A stretch of 25,903 bases of DNA from the UHGV virus genome UHGV-0320751; one strand, given 5' to 3'. A program made the translations under genes and the position numbers. This document shows, in pieces, positions 9,879 to 10,358 of the stretch; positions within the stretch are counted from its first letter, which is position 1, and each line of letters begins with the position of its first letter. The notes under the pieces were generated by a model. The model had not been told where the DNA came from. It saw only the letters and a program-made list of their open reading frames with translations, and did no database searches. This DNA comes from a virus.

Positions 9879-10358
9879 CTTATTATCCTGCATTGTTAAA
9901 AACGGCAGAATCCTATGTGACAACAATTAAACGATAGTTAAATGGATTGATGAAAATTAAAACTACACAGGTGGGCTCAGACTATTGGAGGAAGTTGGGG
10001 ACACTCAGAATCCTGTGGAATGAAATAAACCGGTCTATCCGTCCATTACCCTTTTAGCTGCGCTGTATCGTCGCCGTATTCCCGCATTAACCATGACCGT
10101 AGCCCGACGGGGAATTCCTTCTGCGTGAGTGTGCGGGAATAATTAAAAACGATGCACACCGGGTTTTTACCGCGTTAATGATTCGCGGGTTTATCCCGGT
10201 GCGATGGTGGAAGAAACAGGAAGCTGTATTACAGAAAGTGCTACTACTGTATCCCGATGCGATGTATGTAATGTGAGTCAGATAATGGCACAGGATGTGG
10301 TGATGTGGCAGTCTGGAACACAGGATATATTGTCAGAATAAGACCCGTAGGAATAAAA

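Follow-up and report, generated by a model that had tools for sequence, protein, structure and literature searches.

A conserved structured non-coding element behind the lysis genes of phage 21, lambda and related phages: a candidate RNA motif of lambdoid late operons

The window analysed here is the whole 25,903 nucleotide (nt) stretch of the virus genome UHGV-0320751. Between the divergent genes for the lipoprotein Bor and a TonB-like lipoprotein, positions 10059-10222 of the + strand hold a conserved non-coding element of about 165 bases, hereafter the module. Pairing in two of its stems, P1 and HP3, is maintained by compensatory changes, and the + strand is preferred. We tentatively interpret the module as a folded RNA in the late transcript, and infer that it may act as a processing or 3'-end-stabilising signal. 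The finding widens to a candidate new RNA motif of lambdoid late operons, lambda included.

Bases 9880-10400 of the window are 100% identical to Escherichia phage 21 (OL657228) and, judged by its sequence, the window is phage 21 or a near-identical prophage. An earlier reading of the same letters, the original prediction, had described the spacer between the two lipoprotein genes as structured and had proposed a small RNA (sRNA), riboregulator or operator for divergent expression of the two accessory genes (morons). The observation is largely right. The earlier reading is right about a structured, probably RNA-acting element, and wrong about what the element serves.

Pairing and covariation

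We aligned 32 distinct variants of the module, computed a consensus with RNAalifold and counted pairs on a structure that we specified ourselves. In the window, the parts of the module are as follows.

10059..10222, + strand: conserved module, consisting of domain 1 (the long hairpin P0/P1), a variable middle hairpin and HP3
10065..10071, + strand: 5' strand of P0, GUAUCGU (RNAalifold), almost invariant
10149..10155, + strand: 3' strand of P0, ACGAUGC (RNAalifold)
10072-10076 (CGCCG) and 10142-10148 (AUUAAAA), + strand: 5x7 internal loop between P0 and P1 in the consensus structure
10077..10086, + strand: 5' arm of P1, UAUUCCCGCA, the inverted repeat of the original prediction
10132..10141, + strand: 3' arm of P1, UGCGGGAAUA, partner of the 5' arm
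10098..10125, + strand: interior of domain 1, with P1b (CGUAG/CUGCG) and the apical P1c, CCC (10103-10105) / GGG (10110-10112)
10157..10201, + strand: nested middle hairpin, inner stem CCGCG (10170-10174) / CGCGG (10184-10188), outer stem CACCGGG/CCCGGUG specific to phage 21
10196..10220, + strand: HP3, CCGGU (10196-10200) / ACAGG (10216-10220), a stem of 5-7 base pairs (bp)

The perfect 10-bp inverted repeat that had been described, TATTCCCGCA (10077-10086) and TGCGGGAATA (10132-10141), is found at exactly these positions, and its 45-nt interior holds GAATTC and CCCGACGGGG as reported. Of 300 dinucleotide shuffles of the region, 5 contained a perfect inverted repeat this long or longer (10 bp or more, loop up to 80 nt). 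For the hairpin formed by the repeat, the folding z-score is -2.0 on the + strand against -0.2 on the - strand. For the nested hairpin, whose arms at 10157-10174 and 10184-10201 were likewise confirmed, the values are -2.1 on the + strand and -3.8 on the - strand (0/200 shuffles). The two hairpins are locally stable; the full 432-nt spacer is not unusually structured (z = -1.1 on the + strand, -0.6 on the - strand).

The main evidence comes from covariation. The lower stem P0 (7 bp) is paired in 98.7% of cells across the variants. P1 (10 bp) is paired in 96.6%, and 4 of its 10 pairs have changed on both sides: CG to GC in lambda, CG to UA in L010 (L-numbers are our labels for loci and contigs), and UA to CG, CG to AU and CG to UA in S135. 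HP3, with the consensus CCGGU...ACCGG, is paired in 94.5% of cells, and 5 of its 7 pairs have changed on both sides. S135 alone contributes three double substitutions in P1 and two in HP3. The arms of the two stems differ between variants as listed.

P1, lambda: CCCGG / CCGGG
P1, L010: UUUCC / GGAAA
P1, S135: UAUCAUCGCA / UGCAAUGAUA, three double changes
HP3, most variants: CCGG / CCGG
HP3, L030 type: CCUG / CAGG
HP3, S135: UCUCGAU / AUCGAGA

The observed covariation was reached by none of 500 shuffles, and slid controls were 37-54% paired. Cells that pair as G-U, valid only on the + strand, number 89, versus 20 A-C cells, valid only on the - strand, and two pairs are predominantly U-G. The RNAalifold energy is -29.4 kcal/mol on the + strand versus -12.4 on the - strand, where HP3 is lost. 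Together this is good evidence for structural constraint. The covariation across related prophages that the original prediction had proposed to look for is present in its inverted repeat, which stands as a hairpin selected for pairing, most likely as RNA. Its further claim, that the element is an operator or riboregulator of the divergent morons, does not hold.

In the interior of domain 1, P1b is paired on the + strand in 157/160 cells, and its middle pair is U-G in 21/32 variants and C-G in 11/32. The P1c stem is paired wherever it is present, with varying loops (GACG, UGAC, UUAAU, UUGC), and the apical part of domain 1 is deleted in some Stx phages. For the top of P1, RNAalifold offered an alternative (27-30 with 71-74). 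We rejected it for the register of the original prediction, because lambda breaks the alternative (G-G) and keeps 27-76 through a C-G to G-C swap.

In the middle hairpin, the position of the inner stem is occupied in every lineage, with varying sequence.

Inner stem, phage 21: CCGCG / CGCGG
Inner stem, 434: CUGUG / CGCAG
Inner stem, S135: CAGC / GCUG
Inner stem, 933W-like (Stx): UCUCAUUUU / GAGAUGGGA

S135 has not retained the outer stem. CCGGUG serves in most variants as the 5' arm of HP3, and in S135 this arm co-varies with its HP3 partner and not with CACCGGG. Variant L108 combines a right flank of the phage 21 type with a full-length middle. From this comparison phage 21 has lost 16 nt, and the deletion creates the outer stem. 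In HP3, GAAGAAA (10210-10216) is invariant; it mostly forms the loop, and its last base is the first of the 3' arm. The window has a G10198-A10218 mismatch in HP3, and the sister variants L045 and L060 have a matched pair here.

It should be noted that L056, L046 and L090 have variable G-runs (up to 10 G) in the middle region and the HP3 loop (columns ~131-140 and ~166-172); these may be real homopolymer variation or assembly errors. By eye only, we also considered whether the purine loop of HP3 pairs with the pyrimidine-rich internal loop of domain 1, whether the HP3 loop holds Chi-like or ops-like motifs, and whether there are motifs for CsrA or Hfq. These ideas were dropped, some of them for lack of conservation.

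Position and distribution of the module

A covariance model of domain 1 found a single copy in the window, at 10059-10160 (125 bits, E = 5e-33). A search with a 166-nt query gave 11,733 places in 4583 of 5426 complete Escherichia coli genomes, with a median of 2 and a maximum of 11 copies per genome, and an additional 695 places on plasmids. No annotated feature lies under any of the places found in the E. coli genome and plasmid search. The module is present in 398 phage records, among them lambda, 434, 21, most Stx-converting phages of both tail types, Shigella phage POCJ13 and the Salmonella ES18/S135 group. The lambda copy spans 46868-47047, and in K-12 the domain 1 of prophage DLP12 is located at 579009-579110. 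The module forms an island of similarity, with 70-84% identity inside it versus a background of about 55-60% in the flanks.

In every case examined the module is co-oriented with the lysis genes and follows Rz, with or without one accessory gene between. The following arrangements were found.

Rz-bor-module: lambda, 434, 21 and 933W-like phages
Rz-module: UMNF18 and BP-4795
Rz-rha-module-terminase: ES18 and POCJ13
Rz-gene-module-gene-module-cos-Nu1: L010

Endolysins, terminases and adjoining genes vary among the phages that carry the module. Since UMNF18, BP-4795, ES18, POCJ13 and L010 carry it and lack bor, the TonB-like gene or both, bor is not required. The same distribution contradicts the co-regulation of bor and the TonB-like gene that had been proposed: the element is present in phages without either gene. 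L010, an IMG/VR lambdoid contig, has two copies 950 bp apart (5057-5249 and 6007-6199), which bracket one + strand open reading frame (ORF) between Rz and Nu1. This resembles the insertion of a cassette by recombination at the module.

An Rfam search, one of the checks named in the original prediction, was run against Rfam 15 at permissive thresholds and gave no family at E <= 1 within the window's module and no match at all in six other module-bearing loci. ARAGORN found no transfer or transfer-messenger RNA in 9500-10800. Scans of phage 21 and BP-4795 revealed no promoter-like site and no intrinsic terminator on the + strand of the module, and HP3 is followed by a tail that is not U-rich. 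Conservation begins abruptly at UGCG, and the sequence upstream is unrelated among contexts, so there is no conserved promoter. No reading frame is conserved across the variants, which differ by indels of 1, 9 and 16 nt, and the ORFs over the module differ by lineage (11 amino acids (aa) in phage 21, 17 aa in lambda, 67 aa as annotated in ST2-8624). The indels and the unconserved ORFs indicate that the module is not protein-coding. The 67-aa coding sequence of Stx phage ST2-8624, labelled 'Rz-like spanin', spans the module (L256:1535-1738) and is probably mis-annotated, since other phages do not keep its frame. Phages 21 and 434 have recently been re-annotated by experts, with nothing marked at the module, and our literature search found no description of the element.

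When the sequence upstream of distant bor homologues (Salmonella, Pectobacterium, Buttiauxella, Photobacterium) was searched, neither BLAST nor the covariance model found the module. On the one plasmid place that was inspected, in the iss plasmid pZ0117ECO0116-1 (L254:1996-2098), only the first ~100 nt of the module (domain 1) are present. This truncated copy adjoins iss, a bor homologue, and an Rz/Rz1 remnant, and ends beside an IS2-family element; it is a relic of the lambdoid ancestry of iss. About 30 species-representative genomes, from unrelated bacteria (Kitasatospora, Cohnella, Flavobacterium, Shewanella and others; L126-L151 and others), also contain short contigs that match bor. The matches are uniformly 93% identical to phage 21 Bor, and L128 and L130 carry a module of the lambda type. 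These contigs are most likely contamination with phage lambda control DNA.

Neighbouring genes and the rest of the spacer

The + strand lysis genes S21, R21, Rz and Rz1 end at 9553, and Nu1 is located further right at 11637, also on the + strand. Between them lie the following features in addition to the module.

9585..9878, - strand: bor lipoprotein gene (Pfam Lambda_Bor, PF06291, E = 1e-30), annotated in phage 21; a neighbour, outside the element
9879-9945: bor promoter region
9910..9944, - strand: putative bor promoter, with the PhoP-box-like CATTTA-ACTAT-CGTTTA (9944-9928), 12 nt and the -10-like TAGGAT (9915-9910)
9946..10058, no strand: variable spacer, largely absent in lambda, interrupted by insertion sequences in some prophages and wholly replaced in others
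10204..10341, + strand: 45-aa ORF, hypothetical in phage 21, no Pfam family, with its ATG within the HP3 loop
10289..10326, + strand: direct repeat CACAGGAT, two 8-mer copies inside phage-21-specific sequence, at chance level
10359..10685, + strand: gene for a lipoprotein with a TonB C-terminal domain (Pfam TonB_C, PF03544, E = 7e-13), annotated in phage 21; a neighbour

Pfam thus agrees with the original prediction that both flanking genes encode lipoproteins, Bor (PF06291) and TonB_C (PF03544). The non-coding stretch between them is real as well, and begins at 9879, next to the bor ATG at 9878, and not at 9927; the latter start matches an in-frame TTG (9926) upstream of the ATG. The 45-aa ORF is doubtful, because its ATG is not kept in other variants and it belongs to no Pfam family. 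The direct repeat CACAGGAT exists, one base to the left of where it had been placed (10289-10296 and 10319-10326), and is what chance would give: two repeated 8-mers were observed versus a mean of 1.74 in shuffles, 47% of which reach two.

Alignment with lambda, 434, DLP12 and about 130 bor-anchored loci showed that the spacer is a composite of four parts. In brief, about 115 nt adjoining bor are carried along with every close bor allele; then follow the variable spacer, the module, and a leader specific to phage 21 that runs from the module to the TonB-like gene. Loci of the L206 type have a different sequence upstream in place of the variable spacer. In the L202 and L225 prophages, insertion sequences are located in the variable spacer, at the equivalents of window ~10048 and ~10017.

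We searched for a PhoP box as (T/G)GTTTA-N5-(T/G)GTTTA upstream of a -10 element. The bor genes of lambda and DLP12 have an exact box, TGTTTAGGGTTTGTTTA, in the aligned position (0/200 shuffles for lambda), which in lambda is L003:906-922 (- strand), corresponding to lambda 46805-46821. The phage 21 box at the homologous place, 9928-9944 (- strand), has three mismatches and is not significant alone; the -10 element and the spacing of the putative promoter were read from the sequence by eye. The borD gene is a member of the PhoP regulon (PMC5740661). As the box is exact in lambda and DLP12 and degenerate in phage 21, PhoP control may differ among bor alleles. A riboregulator in the 5' untranslated region (UTR) of bor was ruled out, the bor promoter position being proximal and the module separable from bor. 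The bor leader was also considered as a collapsed module (TATCCTGCATT..TTAAAAACG), and did no better than shuffles (48/500 and 142/500).

The strongest sigma-70-like site of the area, TTAACC-16-TATAAT with TG, is located inside the TonB-like gene at 10513-10486 (- strand), directed left toward the module and bor. If it is active, the phage-21-specific - strand hairpin and U-tract (10201-10140) could terminate its transcripts. At 11502-11648 of the window, weak, sub-threshold Rfam matches to unrelated families (E about 0.45) coincide with a hairpin immediately before Nu1, where cos is expected, and were treated as chance.

Possible function and comparison with known systems

A cis-acting RNA of the late transcript is favoured by the orientation of the module with the late operon, its position after the lysis cassette, the pairing on the + strand and the lack of a promoter and terminator of its own. 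The module would be transcribed as part of the pR' late polycistronic RNA, at the junction of the lysis cassette and the packaging genes. We suggest that the succession of lower stem, internal loop and upper stem may be a site of endonucleolytic cleavage, of 3'-end stabilisation, or of both. The outline of P0 (7 bp), 5x7 loop, P1 (10 bp) and interior pairs is compatible with a signal for ribonuclease III (RNase III) and is not specific to it. By analogy with phage T7 sites only, the 3' side of the internal loop (10142-10148) is the proposed cleavage zone. Cleavage there would part the lysis-gene messenger RNA (mRNA) from the downstream mRNA, or set the half-life of either. There is a precedent in lambda itself, as Daniels et al. 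1988 (reference 49 of PMC7547250) reportedly dealt with the processing of its late RNA by RNase III. A + strand transcript of K-12 runs to a Rho-dependent 3' end at 579345 (PMC7815308 supplement). This position (NC_000913, + strand) lies antisense to ybcV and about 170 nt beyond the DLP12 module, and shows rightward transcription in this part of the cryptic prophage.

Several observations weigh against a processing or stabilising role. The module is absent from HK97, HK022 and bor phages of the L206 type (bor-HNH-terminase), and is therefore dispensable. The K-12 Term-seq tables (PMC7815308 supplement) list no 3' end inside the element. The thermodynamic stability of the whole module is modest, with z from -0.2 to -2.4. 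As the sequences are closely related and recombining, the compensatory events that can be counted as independent are few, roughly lambda, L010, L008, the L030 class and the Salmonella group. In Salmonella, P1 keeps one or two C-A mismatches, and the phage 21 copy has the 16-nt deletion and the HP3 mismatch. Finally, it is the shape of the element that suggests RNase III. We nevertheless favour a processing or stabilising role over the alternatives below.

The module could instead be an unrecognised family of structured RNA in the late RNA of lambda and most lambdoid prophages of E. coli, with a dedicated regulatory function where lysis and packaging genes meet. It might, for example, adjust how much or when lysis messages are made relative to those for morphogenesis, or bind a host or phage factor via the invariant GAAGAAA of HP3, and would then be neither a mere processing hairpin nor a recombination scar. 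We regard this as unlikely, though worth bearing in mind.

A similarly small probability is given to a role at the DNA level. The module would be a mosaic 'linker', a patch of homology at the lysis/packaging boundary for recombination and moron exchange, and its hairpins would be incidental, or would act as cruciforms or hairpins of single-stranded DNA. Much of the distribution is in line with this: homology ends sharply on both sides of the module, the flanking genes differ from phage to phage, the element is dispensable, and L010 has two copies around one ORF. So are the signs of exchange within the element, such as recombinant arms (e.g. L031, with a left arm of the lambda type and a right arm of another type) and a middle part that has been swapped between lineages. 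With a pure linker one would not, however, expect P1 and HP3 to change in a compensatory way, G-U cells to outnumber A-C cells or the orientation relative to the late operon to be fixed, although the strand bias could be mimicked by G-T wobble in single-stranded DNA.

We think it quite improbable that the module acts on the - strand, as a terminator or insulator that shields the bor promoter from transcription that comes from leftward morons (ybcV/lambdap78, DUF3950) or starts at an antisense promoter within the TonB-like gene. The idea stems from the nested hairpin of the window, which on the - strand has z = -3.8 (0/200 shuffles) and is followed by UUUUUAAUUAUU, and from the left-pointing promoter-like site at 10513-10486. 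Moreover, a leftward gene ends 15-70 nt from the module in lambda, DLP12 and 434, and in K-12 borD and ybcV are called as transcription units of their own (PMC10392735 supplement). Against this, the strong - strand hairpin is lineage-specific: it is found only in phage 21, where there is no leftward gene, and a simple search for terminators does not report it. On the - strand the consensus fold loses much of its strength, and the G-U bias points to the + strand. Directly beside the module, BP-4795 carries a canonical - strand terminator of its own, and the module is also found after rightward genes without any leftward gene.

Very unlikely, in our view, is an independent sRNA gene, or an sRNA processed from a 3' UTR, that acts in trans on host or phage mRNAs. 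Many prophage-encoded sRNAs are known (PMC4104026; Pas sRNA preprint), and the element has conserved single-stranded stretches that are A-rich or purine-rich. It has, however, no conserved promoter, no intrinsic terminator or U-tail on the + strand and no Rfam family, and the known sRNAs AgvB, AsxR, StxS and Pas map near pR'/Q, elsewhere than the module.

An operator or riboregulator through which a host signal co-regulates bor and the TonB-like gene is scarcely credible: the element does lie between both genes in phage 21, and bor homologues are PhoP-responsive (PMC5740661), but the element occurs without either gene in some phages and bor without the element in others, the PhoP-box position adjoins bor and is separated from the module by about 115 nt, half-sites with a spacing of 45 nt and strand-asymmetric G-U pairs are unlike a protein operator, the orientation of the element tracks the late operon and not the flanking genes, the scan gave the TonB-like gene no promoter-like site, the nested hairpin belongs to one lineage and the CACAGGAT repeat is no more than chance would give.

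Lambda is among the most closely studied genomes, yet 46868-47047, like domain 1 of DLP12 in K-12, is unannotated. If the module is a functional RNA, it adds a point of post-transcriptional control to the late operon, which in Stx phages also carries the toxin and the lysis genes that determine toxin release. It would then be a new family of the Rfam type in about 85% of E. coli genomes and a marker of the lysis/packaging junction for prophage annotation, and would explain why homology persists at this mosaic boundary. If it is only a recombination linker, it provides a concrete case of the conserved 'linkers' of modular theories of phage evolution.

The closest likeness in shape is to the RNase III signals of T7 (R0.3, R1.1 and others). 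These are irregular intercistronic hairpins in long phage polycistronic mRNAs, located between gene blocks, in which a lower stem, an internal loop and an upper stem follow one another. Once such a T7 site is cut, the upstream message ends in a 3' hairpin that stabilises it. The likeness is confined to shape and position: there is no sequence relationship, and the module has in addition a variable hairpin and HP3 with GAAGAAA.

The RNase III sites of lambda (the N-leader, sib for retroregulation of int, and the late-RNA sites of Daniels et al. 1988), which the outline of the module also recalls, belong to the same phage family and are likewise cis-acting mRNA hairpins that steer the fate of neighbouring messages. 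We take these sites to be located in the pL and pR' leader regions or beyond int, and not at 46868-47047; the late-RNA sites are reportedly elsewhere than the module. Unlike the module, which has no terminator, sib acts together with one.

As cited in PMC4104026, the moron-flanking terminators of Juhala et al. 2000 are also stem-loops that border accessory genes in lambdoid late regions. The module differs in that it has no + strand U-tract and is one homologous element shared by the phages rather than a generic hairpin, with a late-operon orientation that is fixed whichever way the moron points. The sRNAs AgvB, AsxR, StxS and Pas are, like the module, conserved non-coding RNAs of E. coli lambdoid prophages, but they are encoded near Q/pR' upstream of the lysis genes, have their own promoters and terminators, and several have Rfam families.

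REP hairpins of E. coli share with the module that they are repeated intergenic palindromes with many copies per genome, and they can shield upstream mRNA from 3' exonucleases. Their sequence and architecture are unrelated to those of the module, which is confined to prophages and found there at one position.

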